Part shown: positions 5,332 through 52,294 of the stretch, piece by piece | Layout: every line of letters begins with the position of its first letter | Numbering within the stretch: position 1 is the stretch's first letter | Assembly: GCA_041500125.1 (NCBI GenBank) | Contig: JBGQLP010000004.1 | Span: 9,332-73,331, forward strand | Source: Gemmatimonadota bacterium | GTDB lineage: Bacteria > Gemmatimonadota > Gemmatimonadetes > Gemmatimonadales > GWC2-71-9 | Length of the DNA: 64,000 nucleotides | Reading direction: 5' to 3' | Made by a program: the position numbers and the translations under genes | Notes under the pieces: generated by a model | What the model was told of the DNA's origin: nothing | Databases searched by the model: none | Seen by the model: only the letters and a program-made list of their open reading frames with translations

Positions 5332-6708
5332 TTGGAGATGACCACCGAACTCCGAAAGCCTCCACCACTGAGGACCCCGCTCGTGGCCAAGGAAAGCCTC
5401 ACACTCACCGACAACCGCACCGGCAAATCCTACGAGGTGCCGATCGCGGACGGTACCATCAAGGCCACCGATCTGCGCCAGATCAAGGTGTCGGAGGACG
5501 ACTTCGGCATGATGACCTACGACCCCGCGTTCATGAACACCGCCGCCTGCCGCAGCGCCATCACCTTCATCGACGGCGACAAGGGAATCCTGCGCTATCG
5601 CGGATACCCGATCGAGCAGCTGGCCGAGCGGGCGTCGTTCCTGGAGGTGGCGTATCTGCTGTGCGAAGGCGAGCTGCCCAATCGGGAGCAGCTGACGAAG
5701 TGGGAAGAGGAGATCAAGTTCCACACCTACGTCCACACCAATATCACCAAGTTCCTCGAGGGCTTCCGCTACGACGCCCACCCCATGGGCATGCTGCTCG
5801 GCGTGGTCGGCGCGCTCTCCACCTTCTATCCCGACGCGAAGAACATCCACGATCCGGCCAACCGCTACCTCCAGAGGGTCCGGCTCCTGGCCAAGCTGCC
5901 CACCATCGCGGCGTTCGCCTTCCGCCACTCTCGCGGGCTGCCCTACGAGTTCCCCCGGAACGACCTGGATTACATCGGGAACTTCGTGAACATGACATTC
6001 AGCATCGGGGGGCGGCACCAGCCCAACAAGGTGCTGCAGCGCGCGCTGGAGATTCTACTCATCCTTCACGCCGACCACGAGCAAAACTGCTCCACCAGCG
6101 CGGTGCGCGCCGTCGGCTCGTCTCACGTAGACCCCTTCTCCGCGGTGAGCGCGGGGATTGCCGCGCTGTACGGCCCGCTGCACGGGGGAGCCAACGAGGC
6201 CGTGCTCCAGATGCTGGACGAGATCGGCGAGGTGAAGAACATCCCGGCCTTCATCGAGAAGGTGAAAGGCGGCTCCGACCGGCTGATGGGGTTCGGGCAC
6301 CGGGTGTACAAGTCGTACGATCCCCGGGCCAAGCTCATAAAAAAGGTAGCCTACGACGTCTTCGAGCAGACCGGGCTCAGTCCCAAGCTGGAGATCGCGC
6401 TCGAGCTGGAGCGCATCGCGCTGGAAGATGAGTACTTCATCAAGCGGAAGCTCTATCCCAACGTGGATTTTTATTCGGGCTTGATCTACCAGGCCATGGG
6501 ATACCCGACCGACTACTTCACCGTGCTCTTTGCCATCGGGCGGGCGCCCGGCTGGCTGGCGCAGTGGGAGGAGATGCTGCTGGACAAGGACCAGAAGATC
6601 GCGCGCCCCCGGCAGATCTACGTGGGGTCGGAGGAACGGCCGTATCTACCGGTCGAGAAACGAGGAGATAGACGCAAAGTCGAGAGGGAGAGAGTCAGCA
6701 AACGGTGA
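5332..6708 (+). CDS. gltA: Citrate synthase (type II)
   Basis: 458 aa. Motifs GYPIEQLAE, GPLHGGANEAV, GFGHRVYKSYDPRA. TTG 5332 or ATG 5338 as start. 14-aa basic C-terminal extension running into the repeat element. Confidence 0.95.
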   Translation: MEMTTELRKPPPLRTPLVAKESLTLTDNRTGKSYEVPIADGTIKATDLRQIKVSEDDFGMMTYDPAFMNTAACRSAITFIDGDKGILRYRGYPIEQLAERASFLEVAYLLCEGELPNREQLTKWEEEIKFHTYVHTNITKFLEGFRYDAHPMGMLLGVVGALSTFYPDAKNIHDPANRYLQRVRLLAKLPTIAAFAFRHSRGLPYEFPRNDLDYIGNFVNMTFSIGGRHQPNKVLQRALEILLILHADHEQNCSTSAVRAVGSSHVDPFSAVSAGIAALYGPLHGGANEAVLQMLDEIGEVKNIPAFIEKVKGGSDRLMGFGHRVYKSYDPRAKLIKKVAYDVFEQTGLSPKLEIALELERIALEDEYFIKRKLYPNVDFYSGLIYQAMGYPTDYFTVLFAIGRAPGWLAQWEEMLLDKDQKIARPRQIYVGSEERPYLPVEKRGDRRKVERERVSKR

Positions 6709-6783
6709 GAAGTGAGAGGTAAGAAGTGAGAGGGGAGAACCAGCCGCGTCTCCCTCTTACCTCTTACCTCTTACCTCTTACCC
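6705..6783. repeat. Family A heptad palindrome (GTRAGAR arm / CTCTTAC arm), copy 1
   Basis: Left arm GGTGAGAAGTGAGAGGTAAGAAGTGAGAGGGGAGA, apex cagccgcg, right arm TCTCCCTCTTACCTCTTACCTCTTACCTCTTACCC. Fills the whole gltA/speA convergent gap and contains both stop codons. Confidence 0.75.
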
Positions 6784-8757
6784 TTTTCTCTCCCCGCTCA
6801 CGCTCTCTTCTACCGGAACATCGCCTTCCAAGTAGGTGTAGCCTTCGAGTCCTGCGACATAATCCGCGATAAAGCTGTTGGCCTCCTGCCGGCTCAGATC
6901 CTTGGCGTTACCGACCTTGCGGCGGAATGTCGCCAGGAGATCGGAGGCGCTGAACTGCACGTAGTTGAGCACCTCGGTCACCGTGTCCCCATGGACCAGA
7001 TCGGTGACTTCGTAGCCGTGCTCGGTGAGCCGGACGTGCACCGCATTGGTGTCGCCGAAGAGGTTGTGCAGGTCGCCCAGAATCTCCTGGTAGGCGCCGG
7101 TGAGGAAGATGCCGAGGATGTACGGCTGGCCTTCATCCACCGGATGCAGCTCCAGCGAGGGCTTGCCCTTGCGGCCGCCGGTGAAGCGATCGATGACTCC
7201 GTCCGAGTCGCAGGTGACGTCCTGGAGCGTGCCCCGGCGGGTGGGAGGCTCGTTCAGCCGGTGGATGGGCATGATGGGAAAGAGCTGATCGATGGCCCAG
7301 TTGTCCGGCAGCGACTGGAAGACCGAGAAGTTGCAGAAGTAGCGGTCCACCAGGGCCGACTCGATGTGGTTCACGATCTCGGGGAACGAGGTCTTGTCCT
7401 CGCCCATGGCGTTGGAAATGGCGTTCAAGGTGACCAGGTAGAACTGATCCGCGTCCGCCTTGTCCCGGAGGGAGAAGACCCCGCTGGCGAAATATTCCTG
7501 GGCCCGCTCCTTGGCGAACACGACGTCGTGGAAGACCTCCTCGATCCGGTCCTGGGTGAGACCCTCCAGATTCTCCGCCATCTCGACCAGGAGTGGGTGG
7601 GGCTCTTCCCGTAACTTCGGCGCTATGGGCTCGACCTGGGACTCGACGTCGATGACGTTGATCAGCAGCAGCGAATGGTGGGCGGTCAGCGCGCGGCCCG
7701 ATTCCGAGATGATGTGCGGCATCGGCAGCTCCTCGGTCCGGCACACCGAGCCGAGGGTGTACACCACGTCGTTGGCGTATTCCCGCATCGAATAGTTCAC
7801 GCTGGCGGGACGGGTCGAGCGGGAACCCTCGTAGTCCACGCCCAGTCCTCCACCGACGTCCACATGGGTGATGTCGAATCCCATGTTCCGGAGCTCGGCG
7901 TAGTAGCGGCCGATCTCTTCCAGCCCCGCCTTGACGTAGCGGATGTCGGTGATCTGGCTGCCCAGGTGGAAGTGAACCAGCTTGAGGATGTCCTTCCGGT
8001 CCAGACGGTCGAGCCGGTCGAGGAGCTTCATCAGTTCGACCGAGTCCAGTCCGAACTTGGACCGTTCCCCGCCGCTCTTGGCCCAGCGGCCCGAGCCTTC
8101 GGTTGCCAGTTTGATGCGCACCCCAGCGGTCGGCTTGACGTTCATCTCGTCGGCCACCTTGAGCAGGACCTCCAGCTCGCTGAGCTGCTCCAGGACGATC
8201 ATCACGGTGTGCCCCAGCTTCTGGCCCATCAGGGCCAGCCGCATGAACTCCTCGTCCTTGTATCCGTTGCAGACGATGAGATGGTTGGTTCCCTCGTTGA
8301 GGCCAAGCACGGCCTGCAGCTCCGGCTTGCTCCCGCACTCGAGGCCCACCCCGTGCGGGGCGCCGAACTCCACGATCTCCTGCATCACGTGCCGCTGCTG
8401 GTTCACCTTCACCGGGTACACCGTGGTGTAGGTGCCCTCATAGCCGAACTCCTTGATGGCGTTGCTGAACTCGGTGGCGAGCGCCTGGATCCGGGAGCGG
8501 AGGATGTCGGAGAAGCGGAGCAGGAGCGGCAGTCCGACTCCCTGGGCATGGAGGTCCATGGCCAGGTGGTAGAGATCGAGGCCGCGCTTCCGGTTCGCGT
8601 CGGGATGAACGGTGACGTGACCCTCGGGGTTGACCCGGAAATAGCCCAGGCCCCACCCGCTCATGTTGTAGAGCTTCTCGGCGTCCTTGGTGGTCCAAGT
8701 GGGCGGGGCAACGGTCGTGGCGATGGTGGATCTCCTGGAGGGAAGGCGAAGGGGCAA
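6778..8757 (-). CDS. speA: Biosynthetic arginine decarboxylase
   Basis: 659 aa. N-terminal WTTKDAEKLYNMSGWGLGYFRVNPEGHVTVHP and PLP-Lys context TTVYPVKVNQQ. The ORF-track start is TTG 8757. There is an AGGAGA further in, but no canonical start codon follows it, so the start is uncertain. Confidence 0.9.
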   Translation of the reverse strand: MPLRLPSRRSTIATTVAPPTWTTKDAEKLYNMSGWGLGYFRVNPEGHVTVHPDANRKRGLDLYHLAMDLHAQGVGLPLLLRFSDILRSRIQALATEFSNAIKEFGYEGTYTTVYPVKVNQQRHVMQEIVEFGAPHGVGLECGSKPELQAVLGLNEGTNHLIVCNGYKDEEFMRLALMGQKLGHTVMIVLEQLSELEVLLKVADEMNVKPTAGVRIKLATEGSGRWAKSGGERSKFGLDSVELMKLLDRLDRLDRKDILKLVHFHLGSQITDIRYVKAGLEEIGRYYAELRNMGFDITHVDVGGGLGVDYEGSRSTRPASVNYSMREYANDVVYTLGSVCRTEELPMPHIISESGRALTAHHSLLLINVIDVESQVEPIAPKLREEPHPLLVEMAENLEGLTQDRIEEVFHDVVFAKERAQEYFASGVFSLRDKADADQFYLVTLNAISNAMGEDKTSFPEIVNHIESALVDRYFCNFSVFQSLPDNWAIDQLFPIMPIHRLNEPPTRRGTLQDVTCDSDGVIDRFTGGRKGKPSLELHPVDEGQPYILGIFLTGAYQEILGDLHNLFGDTNAVHVRLTEHGYEVTDLVHGDTVTEVLNYVQFSASDLLATFRRKVGNAKDLSRQEANSFIADYVAGLEGYTYLEGDVPVEESVSGERKG

Positions 8758-9670: not shown

Positions 9671-9785
9671 AGGGAGCGGGGAAGCGGGAAAGCGGGGAGG
9701 CAACAACGAGGTAGCGCAGCGCGGCGCCGTGCCCGGCCGGCTCCCGGTTATGTTTCTCCGGAGCGGACCGAGCGAGGGCGCGGCA

Positions 9786-16828: not shown

Positions 16829-16926
16829 GCGGGGCAGACGGGCAGCGGGGCAGTTCGCCCTGTTGAGCGCTGTCTTTGTGTGCGCTATTGCCGCCCCGCC
16901 GCCCCGCTGCCTCCTCTGCCCCGCTG
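16826..16926. repeat. Family B GGGGCAG-arm palindromic element, copy 1
   Basis: Starts on the queE stop: TAGGCGGGGCAGACGGGCAGCGGGGCAG. Core contains CTGTCTTTGTGTGCGC. C-rich arm CCGCCCCGCCGCCCCGCTGCCTCCTCTGCCCCGCTG ends 3 nt before the next start codon. Confidence 0.65.
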
Positions 16927-22957: not shown

Positions 22958-22996
22958 GAGACCCGGCTGCATCGCGGCGGGTCTTTTCATTTTTTA
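22958..22996 (+). terminator. Intrinsic terminator after the kinase gene
   Basis: GACCCG-gctgcatcgcgg-CGGGTC followed by TTTTCATTTTTT. Confidence 0.6.
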
Positions 22997-23082
22997 TGAC
23001 GCAGGACGGGCCTGCGCTCATAAAAACTCGGCGTTCCGGACAGCCCGGCGCCGGCGCAGGCAATAAACATGGAGTAGGCGCA

Positions 23083-23295
23083 ATGGCTCGCACCATCGGC
23101 ACGGTGAAGTGGTTCAACGACGCAAAGGGTTTTGGTTTCATCACCCCGGAGAATGGGGACAAGGACTGTTTTGTCCATCACACCGCCATCAAGGCGGAAG
23201 GCTTCCGCAGCCTTTCCGAGGGCGACCGGGTTGAGTTCGACATCGTGCAGGGTGCGAAGGGCCCCGCCGCAGAGAACGTGACCAAGGTGAAATAG
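23083..23295 (+). CDS. cspA: Cold-shock protein (CspA family)
   Basis: ORF 22996..23295 trimmed to ATG 23083 (GGAGTAGG upstream). [36 protein letters not shown] (RNP1/RNP2 motifs). 70 aa. Confidence 0.95.
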
Positions 23296-23363
23296 GGCGC
23301 ACCTCCTCGTGCGCCTGGTCTAAAACCAAACGGGCCGCTCTCAACGAGCGGCCCATTTGGTTT
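23296..23363. terminator. Two hairpins after cspA, the second a bidirectional-type terminator
   Basis: GCGCAC-ctcctc-GTGCGC, then AAAACCAAACGGGCCGCTC-tcaac-GAGCGGCCCATTTGGTTT (A-run before, T-run after). Confidence 0.6.
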
Positions 23364-25531: not shown

Positions 25532-26929
25532 TCACAATCCCGGCGGCCGCAGCCGGTGAAATCCAGTGCGCTCCTGATAGCGGATTCCGATCGCAAGCAG
25601 GGTCTCCTCCGACAGGGCCCGGCCGGTGAGCTGGAGGCTGGTCGGTAATCCTGCCTCTCCCACGCCGTTCATCAGAAAGAGTCCCGGCACCCCACAGAGA
25701 TTGGCCGCCCCCCCGATGCTGGCGCCGCCCGGGTGGTTGGGATACACCTTGTCGAACGCGCTGTCGAGGGGCCATGCGACGGTAGGAAGTGACGGAGCGG
25801 CGATGGCGTCGACTCGGCTCAGCAATCGATCCAGCGCCTCCGCGCCCAGCCGGCGGACCCGGAGCGCCCGGAGGTAGTCCTTGGCCAGGATCACCTGTCC
25901 AGGATAGCCGCCCAGCCGATCCTCCGGAGCGGTGAGCTCGGTGATGCGGCCGCTCTCGAATAGCGGCTCGAACGCGCTGGCAGCCTCCGCGTCGATGATG
26001 AGGCTGGCGGCCGGGTCGAAGGGGAGCTCGGGAAGCTCGAGATCCTCGATCAGATCGCCTTCCTCCCGCAAGATCTCGATCGAGGCCTCGAAGTTCCGCA
26101 ACACCTCCGGCTGAGTCTTGTCCCGGGTGCCACGAAGAATTCCCAGACGATATGTGCGGGAGCGACCCTTGCCCGGAGCCACGAACCTGGCCGCGATAGC
26201 GGTGGGATCCTGCGGGTCGGGTCCCGCAATCGCGGCAAGGATAAGCCCACAGTCATGGGCGGTGTGCGCCAGCGGACCCAGCTTGTCCATGGTCCAGCTC
26301 AGTGCCATGGCGCCATGGCGACTCACCCGGCCGTAGGTGGGCCGCAGTCCGGTCACGCCACAAAACGCCGCTGGAAACTGGATCGAGCCCCAGGTCTCCG
26401 ATCCAATGGCAAACGGCACCAGCCCGGCCCCCACCGCCGACCCGGGCCCACTGGAAGAGCCGCCCGACCATCGCGCCGTATTCCAGGGAGACTTGCCCGG
26501 ACCGGTGAAGCTGGCAAACGCCTGGTTGTATCCCATCCCGCCCGCGAGCTCGACCATGCTCAGCTTGGCACACAGCACGGCCCCGGCCTGCCGAAGCCGG
26601 TGAACCACCGTGGCATCGCCCTGGAGCATCTGGTTGCGATACGGCTGCGCCCCCCAGGTGGTGGGTGCGCCCTGGGTCGCGAGCAGATCCTTGACGCCGT
26701 ACGGAATGCCGTGCAGGGGGCCGCGAATCTTGCCGCCGTGCATCTCGCGGTCGCGCTGGCCCGCCTCAGCCAACGCCGACTGCCGGAGCACCGTGACCAC
26801 CGCGTTGTACCGAGGACCGAGCAGCTCCAGCCGCTCGAGAAAATGACGGGTCAGCTCGGTGGCGGAGACGCGCCCGGAGCGCAACAGCGCACCGAGCTCC
26901 GATATTGATAGGAATGAGGGATCGGTCAC
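25532..26929 (-). CDS. Amidase signature (AS) family amidase, no signal peptide
   Basis: 465 aa. Catalytic Lys in GIPYGVKDLL and Ser-cisSer in GGSSSGPGSAVGAG. GatA-like fold. ATGA overlap with the upstream small gene. Confidence 0.9.
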   Translation of the reverse strand: MTDPSFLSISELGALLRSGRVSATELTRHFLERLELLGPRYNAVVTVLRQSALAEAGQRDREMHGGKIRGPLHGIPYGVKDLLATQGAPTTWGAQPYRNQMLQGDATVVHRLRQAGAVLCAKLSMVELAGGMGYNQAFASFTGPGKSPWNTARWSGGSSSGPGSAVGAGLVPFAIGSETWGSIQFPAAFCGVTGLRPTYGRVSRHGAMALSWTMDKLGPLAHTAHDCGLILAAIAGPDPQDPTAIAARFVAPGKGRSRTYRLGILRGTRDKTQPEVLRNFEASIEILREEGDLIEDLELPELPFDPAASLIIDAEAASAFEPLFESGRITELTAPEDRLGGYPGQVILAKDYLRALRVRRLGAEALDRLLSRVDAIAAPSLPTVAWPLDSAFDKVYPNHPGGASIGGAANLCGVPGLFLMNGVGEAGLPTSLQLTGRALSEETLLAIGIRYQERTGFHRLRPPGL

Positions 26930-27258
26930 GGACGCGGGGTCCGGCGGGGAGCCATGAGGAGAAAGTCGGGCTCATCCCCATTGGTCAGCTCCACCTTCTT
27001 GAGCTGGTCCACCCGCTCCAGTCCGGACTGAATCTGGCGGGCAATGCCGGCGAGATCTTCCGACGACAGCCGCGACCCGTACTGAGCCCGAATCACCTCG
27101 GTCAGAGACTTGGCGAGCGCACCGGGGTCTGCTCTGACTGCTTCGGCTCCGCCGGTCCAGAGAGGCAGGCGGATGGACTCCGGTGGCGAGCCGATCAGAG
27201 GAGCAAGCGCCGCCGCAGCGAGCGATTCGGCGAAGGCGCGGCGGGAGATATCGCTCAT
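26926..27258 (-). CDS. Small protein with twin-arginine signal and GatC-like C-terminus
   Basis: 110 aa. MSDISRRAFAESLAAAALAPLIG (SRRxF plus h-region). C-terminal LSSEDLAGIARQIQSGLERVDQLKKVELTNGDEPDF resembles GatC/AtzG-type amidase partner subunits. Start and stop codons overlap both neighbouring genes. Confidence 0.6.
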   Translation of the reverse strand: MSDISRRAFAESLAAAALAPLIGSPPESIRLPLWTGGAEAVRADPGALAKSLTEVIRAQYGSRLSSEDLAGIARQIQSGLERVDQLKKVELTNGDEPDFLLMAPRRTPRP

Positions 27259-29198
27259 GAAATGGTCTCGCCCTGCCCCGCCGACCCGGCGCGGCCTTGC
27301 CGATGGTAGAGGTACGCCAGCAGCAGAAAGACCAGACCGAGAATGAAGACGGAGCCCACCCGATAGAGCGCGTCGAGCGACGAAAGGTCGAAGACGAGGA
27401 CCTTCACCACAGCGAGTCCGGCCACCCCGAGTCCGGCAACCCGGGCCGGCTTGAGCTCACGGCGGAAGCCCACCACGACGAGCGCGGCCGCGAACACCAG
27501 CCACCAGGCGCTCACCGCCAGACCCGCGGAAAGGCTGGCGGTCTGGGCCGAGAGGGACCGCAGCACGAAGTAGCGCTGGATCTCGCCGGTGACGCCGAAG
27601 AGCACCATCGCACCGGCCACCACCCACAGGATGGCCTGCACCACGGGGCCAGGACCGGATTCCGAGGTCACCTTCCAGAGTTTTCCAGCCAACGCGACGG
27701 TCACCGCTGCCGCGCCCCAGAGCGCCAGCGCCCAGGATCCCACGAAGGCGGGATCGGCGGGCGTCCGCTGCGCGACCGCGCCGGTGAAGAGCTGGTCGAG
27801 GGCGGCCCACAGCGTGGCGACCGCGTACCAGCGGCCATCCTCTCGATTGAGCCGGTGATCGAGCGCCGCCCAGAGCACGGCGAGCGCCAGCAGCGCCCAC
27901 ACCCGTTCGATGCCGTCCCAGTGCCGCCACACGGCAATGCCCAGCGCGGCCGCCGCGACGACCGCGAAGATCGGGCGGGGCCGCTGGTATCCCGCAATCA
28001 GGTACGGCACGGCCACGATCAGCGAAACCATGCCCTCATGCCCGTCGAACCATGGCGGCGCCAGGCCATGCACCGCCCATCCGAGCAGAAATGGCGTCAA
28101 GAAAAAGTAGACCGCCTCACCCAGGGACCAAGTCGGCACACTGGAATTCGGCAGTCGGAAGATCGGCAGGGTCAAATCGGAGCGCAGCGCGAACCACCAG
28201 ACCGGCGCGGCCAGCACGATCCCGCCGAGCAGGACGGCCCAGGGGCTTCCGAGCTGGTGACTAGCGGCGCTCACGAAAGTCCAGCCACCGGCAAACGACA
28301 GGAACCTGGTCTCCGGCCAGCGCTCCCGGAGGCCGACGTGGATGCCGGCACTCCCCCCGAGCACGCCGTACAGCAGAACCCCCCAGGCGGAGCCACGGTC
28401 CGCCGCGCCGACGTAGGCCACGCCGAAGAAGCTCAGCGCGACGATGAACATGGCCAGGCGCCAGCGGCGGCGTGCGGCCACGAAGCCGAGCCCAGCGGCC
28501 ATGCACGCGAGGTAGAGAAGAAGCAGATCGGCGTCGGCCTGGTTCCGGCCCAGCAGCAGCGGAGCGAAGAACGCGCCCAGGGCTGCCGTGGTCCCCAGCG
28601 CCTCGACGTCGATGGCATAGGCGATCATTGCCAGGGCGACGGAGACCAACGCCAATCCGATGATGCCGGTGGTGGGCGGCAGGACCCCGTACAAGCGCGC
28701 CGCGGCCCAGACACTCAGATAGATGATGGCGGCGCCGCAGCCGATCAGGGCCGCGCCATAAGTGCGGTAGCGCGGATGGAGCCGCCAGCCGACCGCTCCC
28801 ACGATGAAGCCGGAGATGGCTCCGCCGATACAGCGCATCAGGGGTGAGATCCAGCCCCGATCGAACGACAGCCGGAGGAGATAGCCGGCGGCGAGGATGA
28901 GGGCGATCACGCCGACAGCCAGGAGGACGCGCTGGCCGATCCATTGTTCGGAGGAGAGAAGCGGGGCCGCGGGGCGGAGGGGCGGCGGGGCAGATGTGGG
29001 CGGAGCGACGGAACGGGGTGGCGGGGCAGGTGACGACGGAATTGGCGTTGCTGTTTGCGTCACCGCTCCCCGGCTTTCCTGCGGCGCCGCATGCTGCCCC
29101 ACCACCCCGCTGCCCCGCTGCCCCACCAGCGCCCCCACCAATTCCTCGAGCTGGGTCACGCGCCTCTCAAGGCGCTCGATCCGGGCGTCCTCGCTCAT
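27255..29198 (-). CDS. DUF2339-like polytopic membrane protein
   Basis: 647 aa. N-terminal coiled coil (RIERLERRVTQLEELV), Pro-rich linker, then roughly 18 hydrophobic segments. This architecture is typical of DUF2339. Confidence 0.75.
   Translation of the reverse strand: MSEDARIERLERRVTQLEELVGALVGQRGSGVVGQHAAPQESRGAVTQTATPIPSSPAPPPRSVAPPTSAPPPLRPAAPLLSSEQWIGQRVLLAVGVIALILAAGYLLRLSFDRGWISPLMRCIGGAISGFIVGAVGWRLHPRYRTYGAALIGCGAAIIYLSVWAAARLYGVLPPTTGIIGLALVSVALAMIAYAIDVEALGTTAALGAFFAPLLLGRNQADADLLLLYLACMAAGLGFVAARRRWRLAMFIVALSFFGVAYVGAADRGSAWGVLLYGVLGGSAGIHVGLRERWPETRFLSFAGGWTFVSAASHQLGSPWAVLLGGIVLAAPVWWFALRSDLTLPIFRLPNSSVPTWSLGEAVYFFLTPFLLGWAVHGLAPPWFDGHEGMVSLIVAVPYLIAGYQRPRPIFAVVAAAALGIAVWRHWDGIERVWALLALAVLWAALDHRLNREDGRWYAVATLWAALDQLFTGAVAQRTPADPAFVGSWALALWGAAAVTVALAGKLWKVTSESGPGPVVQAILWVVAGAMVLFGVTGEIQRYFVLRSLSAQTASLSAGLAVSAWWLVFAAALVVVGFRRELKPARVAGLGVAGLAVVKVLVFDLSSLDALYRVGSVFILGLVFLLLAYLYHRQGRAGSAGQGETIS
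28971..29126. repeat. Family B-like GGGGCAG-arm element embedded in-frame in the DUF2339 gene
   Basis: Plus-strand G-rich arm 28971-29030 (GCGGGGCCGCGGGGCGGAGGGGCGGCGGGGCAG...GGTGGCGGGGCAGG). Core with CTGTTTGCGTCACC. C-rich arm 29093-29126 (CTGCCCCACCACCCCGCTGCCCCGCTGCCCCACC). Same polarity as the intergenic copies. Confidence 0.45.
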
Positions 29199-30424
29199 CA
29201 GGCTTCAGCTCCTTCCGCCGCCGGCTTGGCGACTCTGGGATGCACGTCCACCTGGAACGCCATGATGCCTACCAGCGCCACAACGCCGCCCGCCACGTAA
29301 AAGGGCCAGCCATGGCCCAGCCGCTGGAAAGTGATGGTCGCGAGGATGGGGGCCAGCACCCGGGCCAGACCAGCGAAGGTCTGGGCCACGCCCATGGTGG
29401 TTCCCAATTCTCCCGGCTCAGAATATCGCGACATCAGCGAGGTCGTGGCCGGAAACAGGAGTGCCGTACCGATGGGTACCAGCGGAATGACGACTGCGAG
29501 TGTCCAGAGATCGCGAGGAAGCGGATATAAAGCAAGCCCGAGTACCAGAAGAACGGTGCCGATGCGCATCGCCCAGGTCTCGCCGATCTGATCCACGATC
29601 GGGCCCAGCAGCAGGCTTCGCATGACGAAGGAAAGGACCCCGACGTAGAGAAAGATGTACCCGATGCTCTTCTCGTCGATCCCGAACTCGGCCCCCAGGT
29701 AAAGGGCGAGGACTGACGTCATGGACGCGAATGCGATCATGCCAACGCCATAGATCCACAGCAGCCTGGCGATGGGTGTACCCGGATGCCGCAATGCCAT
29801 CCAGGCCGGATGCCAGATCGGCTTCCGGCCTCTGGCCGGCAAGGCGCTGGGCTCCGTATGCGACTCGGGCAGCCATTTCCAGGCAAAGAAGACATTGATG
29901 AGGCACAGCGCCGCGGCGATCATCCCCGGAGCCGCCTGACCGAAGTGGGCCGCAAACGATCCGATCGCTGGTCCCAACATGACGCCGGCGGACGTCGCGG
30001 CCGAGAGCCAACCGAGCGCCCGGGCTCGATCGGCCGGGTCGACGGTATCGGCCACATACGCCTGGGCCACCCCCGTGGTTCCTCCGCCCGCGCCCTGCAC
30101 CAGGCGGGAGACAAAGAGCAGCCAGACCGAGTGGGCCAGTCCGAACACGACGTACGCCGCGGCCGACGCGCTCAGTCCGATCAGCAGCGCAGGCCGCCGG
30201 CCATAGCGGTCGGACACCCGTCCCCAGATGGGTGCGGACACCAACTGCGCCACGGAAAATGATGCGATGAGCCGCCCGATGGTCTCGGGCGTGGCATGGA
30301 GTTTCAGCGCGTAGAACGGAAGCAGTGGCAGCACGATCATGAACCCGATCATGTCCACGAAATTCACGGCGATCAACACGGCGAGCCGGCGGAACTGACC
30401 GCCCGTACGACGAGCCTCGCTCAT
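29198..30424 (-). CDS. MFS transporter
   Basis: 408 aa, about 12 TMs. MFS signature GRVSDRYGRRPALL between TM2 and TM3. Confidence 0.85.
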   Translation of the reverse strand: MSEARRTGGQFRRLAVLIAVNFVDMIGFMIVLPLLPFYALKLHATPETIGRLIASFSVAQLVSAPIWGRVSDRYGRRPALLIGLSASAAAYVVFGLAHSVWLLFVSRLVQGAGGGTTGVAQAYVADTVDPADRARALGWLSAATSAGVMLGPAIGSFAAHFGQAAPGMIAAALCLINVFFAWKWLPESHTEPSALPARGRKPIWHPAWMALRHPGTPIARLLWIYGVGMIAFASMTSVLALYLGAEFGIDEKSIGYIFLYVGVLSFVMRSLLLGPIVDQIGETWAMRIGTVLLVLGLALYPLPRDLWTLAVVIPLVPIGTALLFPATTSLMSRYSEPGELGTTMGVAQTFAGLARVLAPILATITFQRLGHGWPFYVAGGVVALVGIMAFQVDVHPRVAKPAAEGAEA

Positions 30425-32079
30425 CCGGCGTTCCTTCGCTCGGCACCGACGGCAAACACCGCCGCGCTCACCGCCATCAGCACGACCCCATACGCCGCCG
30501 CCACGCCGACGTCGGACTGCCGGAGGCTGGACAGAATCTCCATCGAGATCGGCCTGGTGTCATAGGTATAGAGCATGACGGAAGTCACGAAATCGCCGAA
30601 GGCGGTCACAAAGGCCAGGCTCGCTCCCGCAACCAGCGCGGGCCGGAGGAGGGGAAGCGTCACCCGCCGGAGCGTGCGCCAGCGTCCGGCTCCCAGCGTT
30701 GCGGCGGCTTCGTCGAGCGAAGGATCCAGCGCCCGGAATCCGGCGAGCACAGCCCGGCTGGTGATCGGCAGATTCCTTACGAGATAGGCCAGGGGAAGGA
30801 TCCAGAGCGTTCCCACCAGGATGAACCGCCCGGCCAGGGGCGCATGAACGCTGAATGCGGTTGCCAGGGCGATGGCAAACACGGTACCCGGGACCGCCCA
30901 GGGGAGAGCGAGCAGCCCCTGAATGGCACCTCCAACCCGCTCCCGGCGGCGAACCGATACGATACCGGCGACCACCGCGATGAGCACCGCGGCAATCGTG
31001 GCGGCGCTGGCCAGCCAGAGACTGTTGAGCAGCGGGCGGGCTCGCACCGGGTCTTGGATCAGGGTGAGATAGTTGCGCCAGGTGTACGCCGGAGGTACCG
31101 GCTCAGTGGTCCAGGTTCCGGCCGGCACAAAAGAAACCAGCAGCAGGGTGAGATGGGGAAGCAGAAGCACCAGGGCCAGACTCCACCCTACCACGGCAAT
31201 GGTCACGCGCACGGCGGGGCGCCGAATGGGCACCAGCGCCGGAGCCACGCCCTTCCGTCCTCCTGCCGGGCTCTCCACCACCCGGGATCCCCGCAGCAAC
31301 CAGAGGGATGCGAGCGCTACGAGCGTGAGGGAGACGGTTTCAATCATCGCGAGCTGGTCGTCGCCATTCAGCCGGGTGGCCACGATCTGAGTGGTCATGA
31401 CGCGGAAGCCGCCGCCGAAGATGTAAGGAGCGCTGAACGAGGCGAGCGCGGTCATGAAGGTGAGGAGGGCGCCCGCTCCGAGCGAAGGATACAAGAGCGG
31501 GAGCACCACCCGCCGGAGCGTCCGTATGCGACCCGCGCCGAGGCTGGCGGCGGCCTCGAACACGGCGGCGTCGAGCGAAGCCAGCCCGGCGCGGGTGAAG
31601 AGATAGAAATACACGTACATCGAATAAGCGTGTACCAGGAGGATGGCACCGGCGCCCTGCAGCCGCCACGGCGGCTGCTCGAGGCCGAGGAGCCGTTGAA
31701 CCAGCAGCGACGCGAAACCGCTCTCGCCGTAGAGAAACAGAAAGGCGATCACCCCGACCAGCGGCGGGAGCACCGCGGGAAGTGCGACCAGGGCCCCCAG
31801 GATCCTGCGGCCGGCAAAGTCGTAGCGCCAGAACAGGAAGGCGAGGGGAATACCGATGGCGCCGGCCAGCGCCACGGTGGCCAACGAGATCCACAGACTG
31901 CCCCAGAGCGCGTAGGCCTCGTTGCGCCGGTGCAAGAAGAGCCGAACGAAGTCGAGGGTCCATCCCTCGGGGCCGCGAAAGCCGCCTACCAGGACGAGGA
32001 CGAGAGGGTAGACGATGAGCCACACCAGGAGCACGAGGAGCGCCCCGCCCAACCATCCAACCCGCCGGCCGCGGATCAT
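30421..32079 (-). CDS. ABC transporter permease, fused two-domain type (iron(III)/thiamine-class)
   Basis: ORF 30421..32367 trimmed to ATG 32079 (ATGA overlap with the ATPase stop). Two MetI-like halves, each with an EAA-type loop (FEAAASLGAGRIRTLRRVVLP and DEAAATLGAGRWRTLRRVTLP). Confidence 0.85.
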   Translation of the reverse strand: MIRGRRVGWLGGALLVLLVWLIVYPLVLVLVGGFRGPEGWTLDFVRLFLHRRNEAYALWGSLWISLATVALAGAIGIPLAFLFWRYDFAGRRILGALVALPAVLPPLVGVIAFLFLYGESGFASLLVQRLLGLEQPPWRLQGAGAILLVHAYSMYVYFYLFTRAGLASLDAAVFEAAASLGAGRIRTLRRVVLPLLYPSLGAGALLTFMTALASFSAPYIFGGGFRVMTTQIVATRLNGDDQLAMIETVSLTLVALASLWLLRGSRVVESPAGGRKGVAPALVPIRRPAVRVTIAVVGWSLALVLLLPHLTLLLVSFVPAGTWTTEPVPPAYTWRNYLTLIQDPVRARPLLNSLWLASAATIAAVLIAVVAGIVSVRRRERVGGAIQGLLALPWAVPGTVFAIALATAFSVHAPLAGRFILVGTLWILPLAYLVRNLPITSRAVLAGFRALDPSLDEAAATLGAGRWRTLRRVTLPLLRPALVAGASLAFVTAFGDFVTSVMLYTYDTRPISMEILSSLRQSDVGVAAAYGVVLMAVSAAVFAVGAERRNAG

Positions 32080-37616: not shown

Positions 37617-37943
37617 TTACCTGGGCTTAGCCGCGGCGCAGCGATCGCAGAGGCAGAGGCGAAGCAGCTGCTCAAAAGTGTAGATGCCGGTCCCGTGGCC
37701 GTCGCTCCAGTTCACCCGGAGCCCATAGGCGCCAACCAACTGGAGCGACAGTGGACGGATGTCGGATGGCACGGCTGCGGGATCGAGGAGGGGGCGGCCG
37801 CTCATTTCTTCCACACAGCCGGCGCAGGGGCACGCCAGGCGGAGCCCGCGGGCTGGGAAGAAGCCCTCGTGCTCCTGCTGATCCCATTCGATGAGGATGC
37901 CGTCGTCCCGGCGGTTGATGGCGTGGGGGATGGGGTTGTTCAT
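37617..37943 (-). CDS. DUF971 domain protein
   Basis: 108 aa. [34 protein letters not shown]...[15 protein letters not shown] matches the DUF971 (gamma-BBH N-terminal-like) pattern. Confidence 0.8.
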
Positions 37944-38042
37944 GGCTATGGGCTATTGGCTATGGGCAAATCAAAACAAGAAACCCCCCGGATCACCGGA
38001 GGGTTTCCGACCATCGGAGCAGCCAACAGCGAATAGCCAAGA
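37944..38042. repeat. Family D GGCTATG-heptad inverted repeat flanking a canonical terminator
   Basis: Arm 1 is GGCTATG GGCTATT GGCTATG GGC (37944-37967), abutting the DUF971 start codon. Arm 2 is CAGCCAACAGCGAATAGCCAAG (38020-38042), just after the sigma gene stop. Confidence 0.5.
37968..38009 (-). terminator. Intrinsic terminator of the sigma-factor gene
   Basis: Minus-strand RNA: GGAAACCCUCCGG-uga-UCCGGGGGGUUUC followed by UUGUUUUGAUUU. Confidence 0.7.
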
Positions 38043-43591: not shown

Positions 43592-43655
43592 GGGAGCCAG
43601 GAGTCAGGAGCTAGGAGTCGGGAGCCGCCTGCTGGCTCCTAGCTGCCGACTCGCA
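43592..43655. repeat. Family E: five tandem RGGAGYY heptads plus partial complementary arm
   Basis: GGGAGCC AGGAGTC AGGAGCT AGGAGTC GGGAGCC (43592-43626), then gcctgct GGCTCC TAGCTGC CGACTC. Lies in the divergent gap upstream of thrA. Confidence 0.5.
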
Positions 43656-43677: not shown

Positions 43678-46194
43678 ATGCCACGACCCCGCCGCGCACC
43701 GCAGGTGCATAAGTTCGGCGGCGCCTCGCTGGCCGACTCCGCCGCCGTCCGTCACGCCGTCGAGATCATTCAGAGCTACCGTCCGGAGCCCACGGTCGTG
43801 GTCGCCTCCGCAATGGCGGGCGTGACGGATGCGCTCCTCGAGGTGGCTCGGCAAGCCGGAAGCGGCGACGAGCGCACCGTCGCCTCGCTCATCTCTCAGC
43901 TGCGGTCCCGGCACGCCGAGGTGGCGCGCGCGCTGTTGCCCGCGGGCCGCTCCCGCGCGGGGATGCTGGCGCACGTGGCCGAGGTGTTCCAGGAACTGGA
44001 GGCGCTGGCGCAAGGACTGCGGCTCCTTCGAGAGCTCACGCCCCGGACCACCGACTACTTAATTGCGCGAGGCGAACGGCTCAGCGCCCGCCTGTTCGCC
44101 GAGGTCCTGGACCAGACCGGCCACAAGGCGAAGTACGTCGACGCAGCCGATCTGGTGCACACCGACGCGGCCTTCGGCCACGCCTCGCCCGACTTCGGAC
44201 GGACGGACCGCAGCGCGCAGCGCCTGCTGCTGCCGCTCCTCGCTCGTGGCCTCATTCCGGTGGTTCCCGGATTCGTCGGCGTCACCCCCGGAGGAGAAGT
44301 CGCGACCCTGGGGCGGGGCGGTTCGGACCTCACTGCCACGCTCCTGGCGCGAGCACTCGGCGCCTCTCAGGTCTCCCTCTGGAAGGACGTGCCCGGTTTG
44401 CTCACCGCCGACCCGCGGGTGGTGCCCGACGCCCGGGTGATTCCCCAACTGCATGCTCGGGAAGCGGCGGAGCTAGCCTACTACGGTGCCAAGGTGCTTC
44501 ACCCTCGCGCCTTGATTCCGCTGGCCGGGCGGCGCATCCCCATTTACATCCGGCCGTTCGCGGATCCCAAATCGGAGGGAACCGAAGTCTCCGAGCGGGT
44601 GGCGCCGGGACGCTTTCCGGTCAAAGCGCTGACGGCGGCTGGCGGGCAGGCCCTCATAACCGTCACCGGTAACGGGATGCTCGGGGTACCCGGCATCGCG
44701 GCTCGCACGTTCGCAGCGCTGCATACCCGCAAGATCTCGGTCTCGCTCATCTCCCAGGCATCCTCGGAGCATTCGATCTGCTTCAGCGTGCCGGAGCCTT
44801 TTGCCGAAGCCGCGCAGCAGAGCCTGCTGCGGGAGTTTCAGGGAGAGATCGGCCGACGGGAGATCGACGGCGTGGAGGTGAGCCCCGGGATGGCCACCGT
44901 CGCCGTGGTCGGACTCGGCATGCACGGCACCCCGGGAGTGGCCGCGGCGGCGTTTTCGGCGCTGGCCGCCGGAGGCATCAACGTGGTGGCAATCGCCCAG
45001 GGCTCGTCCGAGCTGAACATCTCCGTGGTGGTGGCCGCCGAGGAAGCGGCTGAAGCCCAGCGCCGCATCCACACTGCTTTTCAGCTGTCACGCATCGCTG
45101 GCGGGTCGGTGGTCCAGCCCGAGCGCATGGAGCTGGTGCTCCTCGGGTTCGGCCACATCGGACGAGCCCTCGCAGCGCTCCTGGGGCAGGTGGAGCGGCC
45201 GTCGCTTTCCCTCCGGGTGGCCGCGGTCATCGACCGCTCCGGTTTCGTGTTCGATCCCCAGGGGATCAGCACTCGGCGGCTGGTCTCTCTGGCGGCGGAG
45301 AAGAAGAAGGGACGGCCGTTGGCCGAGCTGCCCCAGGGGACTCGGGCCAGTACCGAAGAAGCGGTGGCGCACATTGCGGGTTACGCACTGACCCGTCCAG
45401 TGCTGGTGGACCTCACTGCTGACGACACCGCGCCGGCTCTGGAACAAGCCCTGACTCGGGGCATGGATCTCGTCCTGGCCAACAAGCGTCCGCTGGCAGA
45501 TCGGCGCAGCGTGAGCGATGCCCTGTGGCAGACAGCGCGGGCCCGAGGCCGGCGCATCCTACACGAGGCGACGGTAGGAGCCGGGCTTCCAATCATCGAC
45601 ACCTACCACAAGCTGGTCGAATCGGGTGACCGGGTCGAACGGATCGAGGGACTTCTCTCCGGCACCCTGGGCTACGTCATGAGCGAGGTGTCGGCCGGAG
45701 TTCCGTTCTCGCAGGCGGTGCGCAGCGCGATGAAAAAGGGCTACACCGAGCCGGACCCCCGCGATGATTTGTCGGGAATGGACGTCGCACGGAAAGCTCT
45801 CATCCTGGCCCGGCTACTCGGCTATCCCGGAGAGTTGCGCCGCAACTCGGTGGAATCACTGGTTCCGAAGTGGGCGCGCTCCATCTCGCTGAAAGAGTTT
45901 CTCGAGCGGCTCGAGGTGATCGATCCGGTCTGGAAGCGGCGGATGGAAACCGCCGCGGACGAAGGATGCGTCCTACGCTATGTGGCGCTGGTGACCCCGG
46001 CGAGAATCGCCGTCGGAGTGCGGTCGGTTCCGACGACCAGCCCGTTTGCCGGCATCAAGGGCTCCGACAATCAGCTGGTCTTCACCACCGCGAGATATAA
46101 GTCCAACCCGCTGGTGATCACGGGGCCGGGAGCTGGCGCGGAGGTTACCGCGGCGGGCGTGCTGAACGACATTCTGAGGCTGGCGGGAGCGTGA
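43678..46194 (+). CDS. thrA: Bifunctional aspartokinase / homoserine dehydrogenase
   Basis: 838 aa. VHKFGGASLADS kinase N-terminus, two ACT regions, C-terminal homoserine dehydrogenase domain. Confidence 0.95.
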   Translation: MPRPRRAPQVHKFGGASLADSAAVRHAVEIIQSYRPEPTVVVASAMAGVTDALLEVARQAGSGDERTVASLISQLRSRHAEVARALLPAGRSRAGMLAHVAEVFQELEALAQGLRLLRELTPRTTDYLIARGERLSARLFAEVLDQTGHKAKYVDAADLVHTDAAFGHASPDFGRTDRSAQRLLLPLLARGLIPVVPGFVGVTPGGEVATLGRGGSDLTATLLARALGASQVSLWKDVPGLLTADPRVVPDARVIPQLHAREAAELAYYGAKVLHPRALIPLAGRRIPIYIRPFADPKSEGTEVSERVAPGRFPVKALTAAGGQALITVTGNGMLGVPGIAARTFAALHTRKISVSLISQASSEHSICFSVPEPFAEAAQQSLLREFQGEIGRREIDGVEVSPGMATVAVVGLGMHGTPGVAAAAFSALAAGGINVVAIAQGSSELNISVVVAAEEAAEAQRRIHTAFQLSRIAGGSVVQPERMELVLLGFGHIGRALAALLGQVERPSLSLRVAAVIDRSGFVFDPQGISTRRLVSLAAEKKKGRPLAELPQGTRASTEEAVAHIAGYALTRPVLVDLTADDTAPALEQALTRGMDLVLANKRPLADRRSVSDALWQTARARGRRILHEATVGAGLPIIDTYHKLVESGDRVERIEGLLSGTLGYVMSEVSAGVPFSQAVRSAMKKGYTEPDPRDDLSGMDVARKALILARLLGYPGELRRNSVESLVPKWARSISLKEFLERLEVIDPVWKRRMETAADEGCVLRYVALVTPARIAVGVRSVPTTSPFAGIKGSDNQLVFTTARYKSNPLVITGPGAGAEVTAAGVLNDILRLAGA

Positions 46195-47156
46195 AGCCAA
46201 AGGAGCAGAGCTTTACCGCGTTCGCCCCTGGTGGGGTGGGTAACATCGGGCCCGGACTCGACATCCTCGGACTCGCGCTCGCCGGCGAGGGCGACACGGT
46301 GCGGGCGGAGTGGAGTGGAACACCCGGCATTCAGATCCGCGACCCGGGACATCGCGATCTCCCTCGTGATCCGGCCCGTCACACCTCGGGCCTCGCCGCG
46401 CGCGCGGTCCTGGACAAGGTGGATGACCGTCGCCATCTGGAGCGCGGTATTGCGCTCACGGTGCGGAAGGGCCTGCCGCTCTCCGGTGGCCAGGGCGGAA
46501 GCGCCGCCTCTGCCGTCGCGGGCGCGGTGGCGGTGAATGCCCTGTTGGGGGAGCCGTTGGACCGGCTGGAGCTGGTCAACGCGGCTCTCGCGGCTGAAGA
46601 GAGGGTCGCTGGCCGGCACGCCGACAACATCGCGCCAGCATTATTCGGCGGCATTGTCCTCATTCGCTCGATGGAGCCGCTCGACCTGGTCCCGCTTCCG
46701 GTCCCCGCCGAGCTGCTGGTGGTGGTGGCACGGCCCAACCAGCGAATGCGAACCGCTGACGCGAGAGCAGTCCTGCCGGCAGCGGTCTCCCGTGCGGTGG
46801 CGCTCCATCAGGCCGCGCAGGTCGGCGCCCTGATTGCCGCCCTCGCCAGCAACGATTACGAGTTGCTCGGCCGCGCGATCGACGACCGCATCGCGGAGCC
46901 AGTGCGGGCCGGGCTGCTCCCCGGATTTCGCGAGGCAAAGCTGGCCGCGCTGGCGGCCGGAGCACTCGGCAGCTCGATTTCCGGCAGCGGGCCCACCGCC
47001 TTTGCCTTGGTGCGGGGACCGGATGTCGCCAAGAAGGTGGCGGAGGCTATGGCGGCAGCCTACGCCGCCTCGGGCCAGCGAAGCGAGGTACGGGTGACAA
47101 CGGTGGACCGCGAAGGGGCTCGGCTGGTTCCCGACCTGGAGGGAGCACATCGGTGA
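46191..47156 (+). CDS. thrB: Homoserine kinase
   Basis: GHMP kinase motif GLPLSGGQGGSAASAVAG. Overlapping start and stop codons with thrA and thrC. Confidence 0.9.
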   Translation: MKPKEQSFTAFAPGGVGNIGPGLDILGLALAGEGDTVRAEWSGTPGIQIRDPGHRDLPRDPARHTSGLAARAVLDKVDDRRHLERGIALTVRKGLPLSGGQGGSAASAVAGAVAVNALLGEPLDRLELVNAALAAEERVAGRHADNIAPALFGGIVLIRSMEPLDLVPLPVPAELLVVVARPNQRMRTADARAVLPAAVSRAVALHQAAQVGALIAALASNDYELLGRAIDDRIAEPVRAGLLPGFREAKLAALAAGALGSSISGSGPTAFALVRGPDVAKKVAEAMAAAYAASGQRSEVRVTTVDREGARLVPDLEGAHR

Positions 47157-48448: not shown

Positions 48449-48540
48449 GAAGTGAGAGGTGAGAAGTAAGAGGTTCAGCTACGAACCAGGCCGCTCACCT
48501 CTCAGCTCTCACTCTTACCTCTTACCTCTTACCTCTTACC
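48444..48540. repeat. Family A heptad palindrome, copy 2
   Basis: GGTGAGAAGTGAGAGGTGAGAAGTAAGAGG ... CTCACCTCTCAGCTCTCACTCTTACCTCTTACCTCTTACCTCTTACC. Contains the thrC stop (TGA 48446-48448) and the convergent gene's stop (TAA 48538..48536). Confidence 0.75.
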
Positions 48541-52146: not shown

Positions 52147-52149
<3 letters not shown>

Positions 52150-52284
52150 GCGGGGCAGCGGGGCGGCGGGGCAGGTTCCTTCTGAGCCAAGCACCTGTCA
52201 TCCCGAGCTTAGCGGGACCACTTCGAGGCTCTCACTGTCTTGGTGTGCACCGTCTACCGCCCCGCTGCCCCGCTGCCCACCTGC
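52147..52284. repeat. Family B GGGGCAG-arm palindromic element, copy 2
   Basis: Starts on the ettA stop: TAGGCGGGGCAGCGGGGCGGCGGGGCAGG. About 80-nt core containing CTGTCTTGGTGTGCAC. C-rich arm CCGCCCCGCTGCCCCGCTGCCCACCTGC. Confidence 0.65.
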
Positions 52285-52294
52285 GCCGCTATTA

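Follow-up and report, generated by a model that had tools for sequence, protein, structure and literature searches.

The stretch of DNA considered here, 64,000 nucleotides of a Gemmatimonadota genome (GCA_041500125.1, contig JBGQLP010000004.1, positions 9,332 to 73,331 of the forward strand; hereafter the window), contains an imperfect palindrome at 6705-6782 that occupies the entire 69-nt gap between the convergent genes gltA and speA, includes the stop codons of both genes and consists of facing arrays of the heptanucleotide GTRAGAR. We interpret this element as a pair of inverted heptanucleotide microsatellites that have grown in place, and we lean, with slightly better than even confidence, toward the view that the hairpin acts as a bidirectional terminator or 3'-end stabilizer for both convergent mRNAs. 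At the orthologous junctions of related genomes, the hairpin is retained while its own sequence is replaced, and the two arms change together.

The heptad palindrome filling the gltA/speA gap, first described in a sequence-only reading of the window, is real on direct inspection, and its earlier transcription was correct overall except for two omitted apex bases ('ac'). The left arm (6705-6739, plus strand) comprises five heptads, GTGAGAA GTGAGAG GTAAGAA GTGAGAG GGGAGAA, is 89% purine and carries stops in all three plus-strand frames. It is followed by a 9-nt loop (ccagccgcg, 6740-6748) and by the right arm (6749-6782, minus strand), TCTCCC plus four copies of TCTTACC, which reads GGTAAGA x4 on the minus strand and carries stops in all three frames of that strand. 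The gene for type I citrate synthase, gltA (5383-6708, plus strand; NF004126, 600 bits; longest open reading frame (ORF) beginning at 5332), has its stop codon TGA (6706-6708) in the first heptad, and speA (6778-8757, minus strand; NF003763, 840 bits), encoding a biosynthetic arginine decarboxylase, ends with a TAA, the complement of 6778-6780, in the outermost right unit; the ORF coordinates thus agree with the earlier placement of the two stops in the outermost units of the arms. Plus-strand stops occur at 6706, 6713, 6720 and 6727, which shuts all three frames within 17 nt, and the minus strand behaves likewise, as the same reading had claimed; the periodic G:U and A.C positions that it noted in the arm pairing are also present, one mismatch per heptad.

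The window is 65% G+C; the repeat far exceeds chance, and the fold is strong on both strands. The two-unit pattern GTRAGARGTRAGAR, allowing at most one mismatch, occurs 14 times in the window, compared with a shuffle expectation of 0.11, and all 14 matches fall within 6705-6781 and a second site, 48445-48539. Tandem Repeats Finder (TRF) reports period-7 arrays of 5.0 and 4.3 copies at 6705-6782, and of 3.9 and 6.4 copies at 48445-48540. RNA folding of the first copy yields an imperfect stem of about 33 bp, with energies of -49.6 kcal/mol (z -6.3) on the plus strand and -50.0 kcal/mol (z -4.9) on the minus strand and none of 200 shuffles equal, that is, folding far stronger than that of shuffled sequence on both strands. 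In minimum free energy structures, a short A-containing flank formed by the final gltA codons (AGCAAACG, 6697-6704, plus strand) pairs with a pyrimidine- and U-rich tail (CCTTTTCTC, 6783-6791) that lies directly 3' of the stem on the plus-strand transcript and, on the minus strand, forms part of the variable speA tail. The junction is identical in an independent assembly of the same species (L121, GCA_041481955.1, a Gemmatimonadales metagenome-assembled genome (MAG)), in which the gltA protein is 100% identical.

The second copy (48445-48540) has the same anatomy and similar stability. Its left arm (48445-48474, plus strand) reads GTGAGAA GTGAGAG GTGAGAA GTAAGAG GT, with the thrC stop codon TGA (48446-48448) in the first unit; the loop region spans 48475-48493; and the right arm (48494-48540, minus strand) reads CTCACC TCTCAGC TCTCAC followed by four copies of TCTTACC, with the stop TAA of the convergent gene, the complement of 48536-48538, in the outermost unit. 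This convergent gene (48536-49786, minus strand) encodes a 416-aa protein whose orthologs carry the Pfam domains TrAA12/GSDH (sugar dehydrogenase-like), and thrC (47153-48448, plus strand) is the last gene of a thrA-thrB-thrC run (43678-48448), which places the second copy exactly where the terminator of the thr operon would be expected. The two copies share the same arm asymmetry, with GTGAGAR units on the left and the reverse complement of GTAAGAG on the right. Further copies of the GTRAGAR palindrome, for which the sequence-only reading had suggested a search, are thus present in the window and, as detailed below, in other Gemmatimonadales and other phyla.

We compared eight distinct orthologous gltA/speA junctions, namely those of the window, L205, L123, L212, L204, L122, L124 and L206; the flanking genes show 81-91% nucleotide identity in seven of these, and L212 is represented by 98% amino acid identity in gltA. 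Arms were compared unit by unit, the unit numbers being too different for alignment. The gltA -> <- speA arrangement is conserved, and so, with few substitutions, is the gltA C-terminus (...RGDRRKVERERVSKR*) in all orthologs among the matches listed (120 of 120); because of this conserved tail, the position of the gltA stop is ancestral, and the array begins exactly there. All eight junctions keep a hairpin that folds better than its shuffles (z from -2 to -14); what varies is the sequence of the units, their number and the content of the loop. GTRAGAR arms are found in the window and L205; L123 has five GTGAGAA units facing five perfectly complementary TTCTCAC units, around a loop that contains an inserted palindrome of about 70 nt; L212 and L122 have GTRAGCG and CGCTYAC arms; and L124 and L206 have plain, non-repetitive hairpins. 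In L212, the flank just outside the right arm is homologous to that of the window, and every unit carries an A-to-C replacement that is matched by the complementary change in the other arm. The L204 junction has arms of the GTRAGCG/CGCTYAC type within a 21-nt super-unit (GTRAGCG GGACTAG RACRAGC), bordered by the flanks AAAAAGC and GCUUUUUGG. The super-unit (L204:11330-11500) is a higher-order repeat of three different heptads that is mirrored in the other arm, and its flanks resemble those of a classical bidirectional terminator.

The speA tail that follows ..PVEE varies among close relatives in its last 2-10 residues and is partly encoded by the hairpin arm (window 6778-6830, L205, L124 and L212), and in L205, speA runs through two units and stops only in the third; the last 2-10 residues of thrC, after ..ERVL, are likewise variable in close relatives and partly arm-encoded. 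Gene ends therefore move as the repeats turn over. The idea that a C-terminal tail is array-derived thus fits speA in part, its post-PVEE tail being variable and overlapping the arm. The same idea was rejected for gltA, where the purine-rich segment 6650-6704 had been considered as degenerate heptads and the 14-aa tail beyond the hidden Markov model match as array-derived: that tail is the one conserved in all listed orthologs, and the length differences among gltA orthologs are those of N-terminal start calls.

The five thrC junctions that we compared (window, L208, L209, L210 and L211) are graded in their degree of array development. The gap of L210 is 26 nt long and has no hairpin; a plain hairpin of 10 bp is present in L208, and a proto-array of two units (TAAGAGATAAGAGG ... 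CTACCTCTCACC) in L209; the window has four to seven units, and L211 has five copies of GTGAACG facing ten of CGTTYAC, again with the stops of both genes in the outermost units. In the arrays at this junction, the unit consists of G, TGA or TAA, and the next three bases, which fits tandem duplication of a stop-containing segment and not insertion of a ready-made cassette; the graded states themselves, from no array through a proto-array to a different heptad, point to growth in place by slippage as opposed to arrival of a mobile cassette. Inspection of the edges of both window copies revealed no terminal inverted repeats apart from the arrays and no target-site duplication. The earlier suggestion of an element targeting gene ends, similar to REP sequences (repetitive extragenic palindromes) or miniature inverted-repeat transposable elements (MITEs), is therefore not supported by comparison of the orthologous junctions, where in-place turnover, proto-arrays and heptads seeded on the local stop were found instead; a MITE would be expected to leave an edge duplication, and the orthologous sites are graded and differ in their units.

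Arrays of this kind are widespread. An exact scan for three consecutive GTRAGAR units, with one representative genome per species, detected at least 120 loci, with copy numbers per genome and taxonomic spread being lower bounds. Among the matches listed, Gemmatimonadota form the largest group, with Bacteroidota, Verrucomicrobiota, Planctomycetota, Acidobacteriota, Cyanobacteria and others also represented, and many of these loci are palindromes of the same design; for example, in Hymenobacter piscis (L075), seven GTGAGAR units face fourteen YTCTCAC units between convergent stops. In the same set of matches, an open frame of at least 100 codons enters 59 of 143 arrays and ends in the first unit in 28 of the 59, in the second in 15 and in the third in 13. 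About half of these stop-seated arrays are 5' arms of hairpins, and approximately 17% have no pairing partner. A unit-agnostic TRF census of 1.8 Mb at 206 loci from many phyla, targeting inverted arrays of 7-10-nt units, yielded 83 inverted array pairs, 63 of period 7 and 15 of period 8. An ORF of at least 100 codons ends within -15 to +21 nt of the outer array edge on 55% of sides, compared to 6.7% at random positions, and both sides coincide with ORF ends in 31% of the pairs, compared to 0.8%; the possibility that arrays are equally common away from gene ends, which would have spoken against the sequence-only reading, is not borne out by these figures. Arrays of period 7 or 8 occupy 11 of the 27 convergent gaps in Gemmatimonadales, 10 of the 49 co-directional ones and 4 of the 28 divergent ones, and in 181 kb of Gemmatimonadales sequence not selected for arrays, period 8 accounts for 29 arrays and period 7 for 16, with one each for periods 5 and 6. 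One locus (L068:2690-2800) has heterologous facing arms, six copies of the octamer TAGGAGGC, which includes TAG and a perfect Shine-Dalgarno-like GGAGG, opposite four YTCTCAC heptads; the arms are non-complementary, yet each presents stops to the incoming gene, an arrangement that the hairpin model does not explain.

The hairpins have a defined polarity. The purine-rich arm comes first on the plus strand, and hence in both transcripts, in 72 of the 83 pairs, and most of the exceptions are compositionally balanced; none of the GTRAGAR pairs among the matches listed is pyrimidine-first, and the arms are 85-89% purine or pyrimidine. Stop-free units (GCGGGGCA, AGGAGAG, GAGGAAG) show the same position, architecture and polarity, so the stops are not the only cause of the polarity. 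Nor does tolerance of G.U pairs or replication-strand bias account for it, both being symmetric for a palindrome, which equals its own reverse complement. The polarity has incoming transcription and translation as its frame of reference. Candidate causes are seeding on stop codons of the T-purine-purine type; tolerance, where arms overlap gene tails, of purine-rich C-terminal extensions (Glu, Lys, Arg and Gly) but not of pyrimidine-rich ones; and a weaker RNA:DNA hybrid at a pyrimidine-rich 3' arm, in line with the general behavior of hybrid stability, that would stand in for a U-tract. Among hairpins of convergent gaps that are not built of repeats, 10 of 14 lean the same way, which is only a weak tendency.

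Closure of all frames has a simple arithmetic basis. Stop codons are three of the four T-purine-purine triplets, and a period of 7 or 8 nt cycles through all frames; therefore, a unit that is rich in purines, contains one T and repeats with a period not divisible by three is likely to shut all frames within three units. This accounts for the ending of ORFs at the array edge, no further than about 17 nt into the arm. Such closure need not be why the arrays exist. Thus, in the proposed 'all-frame stop cassette', the closure is genuine whereas its status as a designed feature was overstated, since it is an arithmetic by-product and stop-free units share the architecture and the polarity. The all-frame stop property has already been noted for TAACTGA heptamers, the arrays of which overlap ORF ends by no more than 18 nt (PMC4679880).

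Under the mechanism that we propose, both convergent transcripts would fold the same stem immediately behind their stop codons, and this stem would end the two mRNAs, protect them, or both, limiting antisense read-through into the neighboring gene. The arms would arise by replication slippage of a 7-nt segment, here one that includes the stop codon (G, TGA or TAA, and 3 nt), and their complementarity would be maintained by selection for pairing, by arm-to-arm template correction, or by both. Outward growth would be halted by essential coding sequence, such that the outermost unit supplies the stop codon, and three-frame closure would follow as a by-product when a unit with a T-purine-purine triplet has a length not divisible by three. 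A role as a bidirectional terminator is plausible, and folding of the first copy does provide the stem that a canonical terminator requires; the tail of this copy has 6 U in 8 positions on the plus strand (CUUUUCUC) and 4 in 8 on the minus strand (GUUUGCUG).

Several observations weigh against this interpretation. At some orthologous junctions a hairpin is dispensable: in L125 the two stop codons are only 3 nt apart, which leaves no room for one, and the L210 thrC junction described above also lacks it; moreover, the stop-seated arrays without a pairing partner imply that stop-anchoring does not require a hairpin. The U-tract is a further difficulty: at least 5 T in 10 nt are found in only 13 of 134 palindrome tails, a measure confounded by absorption of A/U flanks into the stem; the Gemmatimonadales GTRAGAR copies among the matches listed have no consistent T-run past the 3' arm; and a consensus terminator scan did not call the element. 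The window also contains a textbook bidirectional terminator with A-tract, stem and U-tract (23323-23363, AAACCAAACGGGCCGCTC-tcaac-GAGCGGCCCATTTGGTTT), downstream of the gene at 22996-23295, so this organism does not need heptad stems for termination. Arm complementarity could result from template-switch repair alone, without selection, and the source sequences are MAG assemblies, in which repeat copy numbers may be collapsed. The textbook terminator is itself followed at once by four GGTCTAG heptads (to 23393) with TAG in all frames.

The main rival to a terminator or stabilizer is a neutral by-product, in which polymerase slippage would expand heptad microsatellites wherever selection permits, in intergenic space bounded by essential coding sequence, and intrastrand template switching would homogenize the arms, leaving a hairpin without a selected role. 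We assign this explanation a low but appreciable probability. The rapid turnover of copy number and unit sequence, the absence of arrays and even of hairpins at some orthologous junctions (L210, L125) and the occurrence of single arms without a partner all fit it, as do the ranking of heptamers above all other long simple repeats in many prokaryotes, which was ascribed to slippage (Mrazek 2007, in the summary given by PMC4679880), and the Xanthomonas arrays, for which no function could be found (PMC4692102). What it leaves out, however, is that a hairpin is kept at all eight gltA/speA junctions with a gap, even at those free of repeats, that arrays are enriched in convergent over divergent gaps, and that strand-symmetric slippage does not predict the purine-first polarity. 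Quite unlikely, in our view, is a mobile cassette of the REP/MITE type that would insert at gene 3' ends, or define them, and would spread within genomes as well as from one to another. It could account for GTRAGAR at two window loci with the same arm asymmetry and for the fact that single MAGs carry it on several contigs and that many phyla have it (Hymenobacter, Prevotella, Acidobacteriota and Verrucomicrobiota among them), and a genuinely MITE-like palindrome of about 100 nt is repeatedly nested in the loops. Yet besides the absence of array-independent terminal repeats and target-site duplications and the graded rather than cleanly filled or empty orthologous sites, the unit takes in the local stop codon and differs between sites (GTGAGAA, GTGAGCG, GTGAACG), and the flanks remain homologous across a complete change of unit; no transposase was seen beside the copies, though none was specifically looked for, and Rehm et al. 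found such repeats to be unassociated with mobile elements (PMC4692102).

Equally little credence is due to a translational backstop, in which the arrays would be selected to close all frames after the stop and catch read-through or frameshifted ribosomes before the hairpin or the antisense strand of the neighboring gene. The stops always face the incoming gene, the first unit is favored by about 2.6 standard deviations over one third in the 59 entered arrays and holds the stop in 4 of 4 cases in the window, and arrays without a partner still sit on stops. Against these stand the length of the arms, which reach 5-18 units when three suffice, the shared position, architecture and polarity of the stop-free units, the 3 in 4 chance that a T-purine-purine triplet is a stop, such that a purine-rich unit with a T likely carries one, and the L205 speA gene, the course of which through two units indicates that the arm is tolerated as coding sequence. 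Least probable of all, and in our view very unlikely, is a structure acting at the DNA level or through protein binding (a cruciform, a triplex, a G-quadruplex or sites for a repeat-binding protein) with effects on replication, recombination or chromosome organization. The strong purine or pyrimidine bias of the arms (85-89%) would suit such a structure, the octamer family GCGGGGCA has at least four G-runs, and heptamers of Xanthomonas and Nostoc form G-quadruplexes in vitro (PMC4692102); but GTRAGAR has no G-runs, the free replacement of units between close relatives with pairing kept argues against a sequence-specific binding protein, and the polarity relative to incoming transcription, together with the association with gene ends, points to a role at the level of RNA or transcription.

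Like bidirectional intrinsic terminators, the element places one stem-loop in a convergent gap that would serve both transcripts, and its flanks are partly A-rich upstream and U-rich downstream (6697-6704 and 6783-6791 in the window, and clearly so in L204, AAAAAGC-stem-GCUUUUUGG). Unlike them, it has a tandem-repeat stem of about 33 bp with a mismatch every 7 nt, in place of 5-15 GC-rich pairs, and begins on the stop codon, its terminator function being predicted from sequence; the U-tract is weak or absent in most copies. REP and BIME elements of enterobacteria and pseudomonads are abundant intergenic imperfect palindromes at gene 3' ends that can stabilize the upstream mRNA, and a REP within about 15 nt of a stop codon can affect translation termination. 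A REP, however, is a single conserved palindrome of 20-40 nt mobilized by RAYT transposases, whereas the GTRAGAR elements are tandem arrays in which the unit changes by site and species, with no shared palindrome, and no RAYT was linked to them, though no search aimed at one was made. Searches of the window against Rfam gave no matches at gathering thresholds, and at E<=1 only generic miRNA-precursor hairpin models matched, with 16-35 bits against gathering scores of 47-168; literature searches on the GTRAGAR unit strings found nothing relevant.

Heptameric repeats as such have a longer history: Mazel and coworkers reportedly described cyanobacterial STRR heptamers, such as CCCCAGT, in 1990. 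The closest relatives of the GTRAGAR element are the heptamers GGGAATC of Xanthomonas and GGGGA(C/T)T of Nostoc (Rehm et al. 2015, PMC4692102), which are tandem, have 2-26 copies and are overwhelmingly intergenic. In Xanthomonas, they are found on the coding strand within 0-50 bp of the stop, which they overlap in some cases, and are transcribed; each genome has 70-75 convergent inverted pairs capable of forming stem-loops, and the repeats are under-represented between divergent genes (PMC4692102). At conserved loci, close species differ in the length and sequence of these heptamers, which show no link to mobile elements and whose function was left open in that study (PMC4692102). The purine (G)-rich strand points outward in these repeats, matching the GTRAGAR element, which shares every architectural feature of the class except G-quadruplex potential: at least three tandem copies, stop-proximal repeats on the coding strand, rarity between divergent genes, pairs forming stem-loops and variation between relatives are all present, whereas four tracts of at least three G are not, so GTRAGAR cannot form a G-quadruplex; the octamer GCGGGGCA would have the required tracts. 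The GTRAGAR unit also differs in including stop codons and in its host phylum, Gemmatimonadota, and the compensated evolution of arms at orthologous junctions and the cross-phylum census of GTRAGAR-type arrays go beyond the description of Rehm et al.

The TAACTGA heptamers of Beggiatoaceae, Cyanobacteria and Bacteroidetes (MacGregor 2015, PMC4679880) are almost all direct repeats, with one inverted case; they are intergenic and patchy across phyla, differ by indels in 7-nt steps between strains and mostly lie just upstream of start codons, where a translational role has been proposed. Both TAACTGA and GTRAGAR provide stops in three frames, but GTRAGAR forms inverted pairs at 3' ends. According to the summary of Mrazek et al. 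(2007) in the same paper (PMC4679880), heptanucleotides are the most abundant long tandem repeats with units of 5-11 nt, a slippage origin was proposed for them, and they are excluded from coding regions because 7 is not a multiple of 3. The Mrazek and STRR surveys are not known to describe inverted-array pairing, stop anchoring or polarity, and the STRR units and hosts differ from those of GTRAGAR. The GTRAGAR element is thus a new family, in a new host phylum, of a repeat type already described, and the comparisons that reveal the conservation of its hairpin and its defined polarity go further than published descriptions. The earlier view that it belongs to no named family accordingly holds for the GTRAGAR unit, which has no Rfam family and no sequence match in the literature, and fails for the kind of repeat, stop-adjacent convergent inverted heptamers having been described (PMC4692102).

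The window contains a second repeat family with an 8-nt unit free of stops (GCGGGGCA / TGCCCCGC; AGCGGGGA), which has the same architecture with the G-rich arm always first and the G-runs of which could form quadruplexes. One octamer palindrome (52150-52290), with GCGGGGCA x3 ... GCCCCGCT arms, begins directly after the stop TAG at 52147-52149 and ends 4 nt before the next gene; another (16832-16924), with a GCGGGGCA-type arm and GCCGCCCC, lies directly after a TAG; and a third (28961-29124), with GCGGGGCG and GCTGCCCC arms, follows a gene of the MFS family. The third is intergenic because the longest ORF at 27255-29198 (minus strand) extends too far at its 5' end; it represents a gene for a DUF2339 membrane protein, and its Pfam match starts at residue 88. 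A single octamer arm is present at 9675-9698, and the arrays at 16832, 52150 and 9675 begin between 0 and a few bases past a TAG stop. Octamer palindromes orthologous to those of the window were found in L122, L204 and L205. A strong AT skew (up to 0.31) over 26000-32000 coincides with a run of minus-strand membrane-protein genes (MFS, ABC permease, DUF2339).

A palindromic element of about 75-100 nt, with the termini GTCAYCCYGAGCG..AGCGARGG and the inverse, is nested inside the loops of heptad and octamer palindromes in Gemmatimonadales and Hymenobacter, including three orthologs of the gltA/speA junction. It was found at L123:11379-11450, L212:5368-5465, L075:5986-6086, L077:7125-7224 and L030:3221-3324, in truncated form at L122:11435-11495 and as a half-site at 52197-52208 of the window. 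It looks like a MITE that targets hairpin loops, or else the arrays may form around it; literature searches on its terminal strings found nothing relevant. Taken jointly, the observations admit a broader and distinctly speculative reading, improbable as a whole, in which inverted pairs of 7-8-nt microsatellites would be pan-phylum polar hairpin terminators without a U-tract (in Gemmatimonadota, Bacteroidota, Acidobacteriota, Verrucomicrobiota, Xanthomonas and others), born from facing stop codons by slippage and arm-to-arm correction. In that reading, the purine-first polarity would be a mechanistic need, for example with the weak RNA:DNA hybrid of the pyrimidine-rich 3' arm replacing the U-tract, and the loops would be the preferred landing site of the undescribed palindromic element of about 100 nt (GTCAYCCYGAGCG...CGCTCRGGRTGAC) nested in two phyla.

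Two further repeats in the window lie upstream of genes. At 43593-43652, 25 nt upstream of the thrA-like gene (43678) and in a gap that is divergent on the gene map, a heptad hairpin is formed by GGAGCCA GGAGTCA GGAGCTA GGAGTCG GGAGCC and CTGGCTCCTAGCTGCCGACTC; this may serve the thr operon as a leader or attenuator, or may be one more repeat hairpin. On the minus strand, three CATAGCC units (37944-37967) directly precede the ATG of the gene at 37617-37943, reminiscent of the TAACTGA arrays in MacGregor's study, which lie shortly before start codons; a separate stem, GAAACCCCCCGG/CCGGAGGGTTTC, is present at 37979-38006.

In many bacterial genomes, no long simple repeats are commoner than heptamers, and a function could not be assigned to them in the studies describing them. 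The gltA/speA locus offers a clean comparative series, in which the hairpin between the same two conserved genes is assembled from other units in every relative, and this series, together with the statistics on gene ends and polarity across phyla, leads to a hypothesis that can be tested directly, namely a two-way structure at transcript ends that has a defined polarity. If this hypothesis is true, it would show how terminators originate de novo from stop codons by slippage and how termination works in GC-rich lineages without U-tracts, and gene callers and terminator predictors should then model such arrays. If the terminator reading is false, the arrays would represent a striking case of selfish or neutral microsatellite growth, bounded by coding sequence alone.

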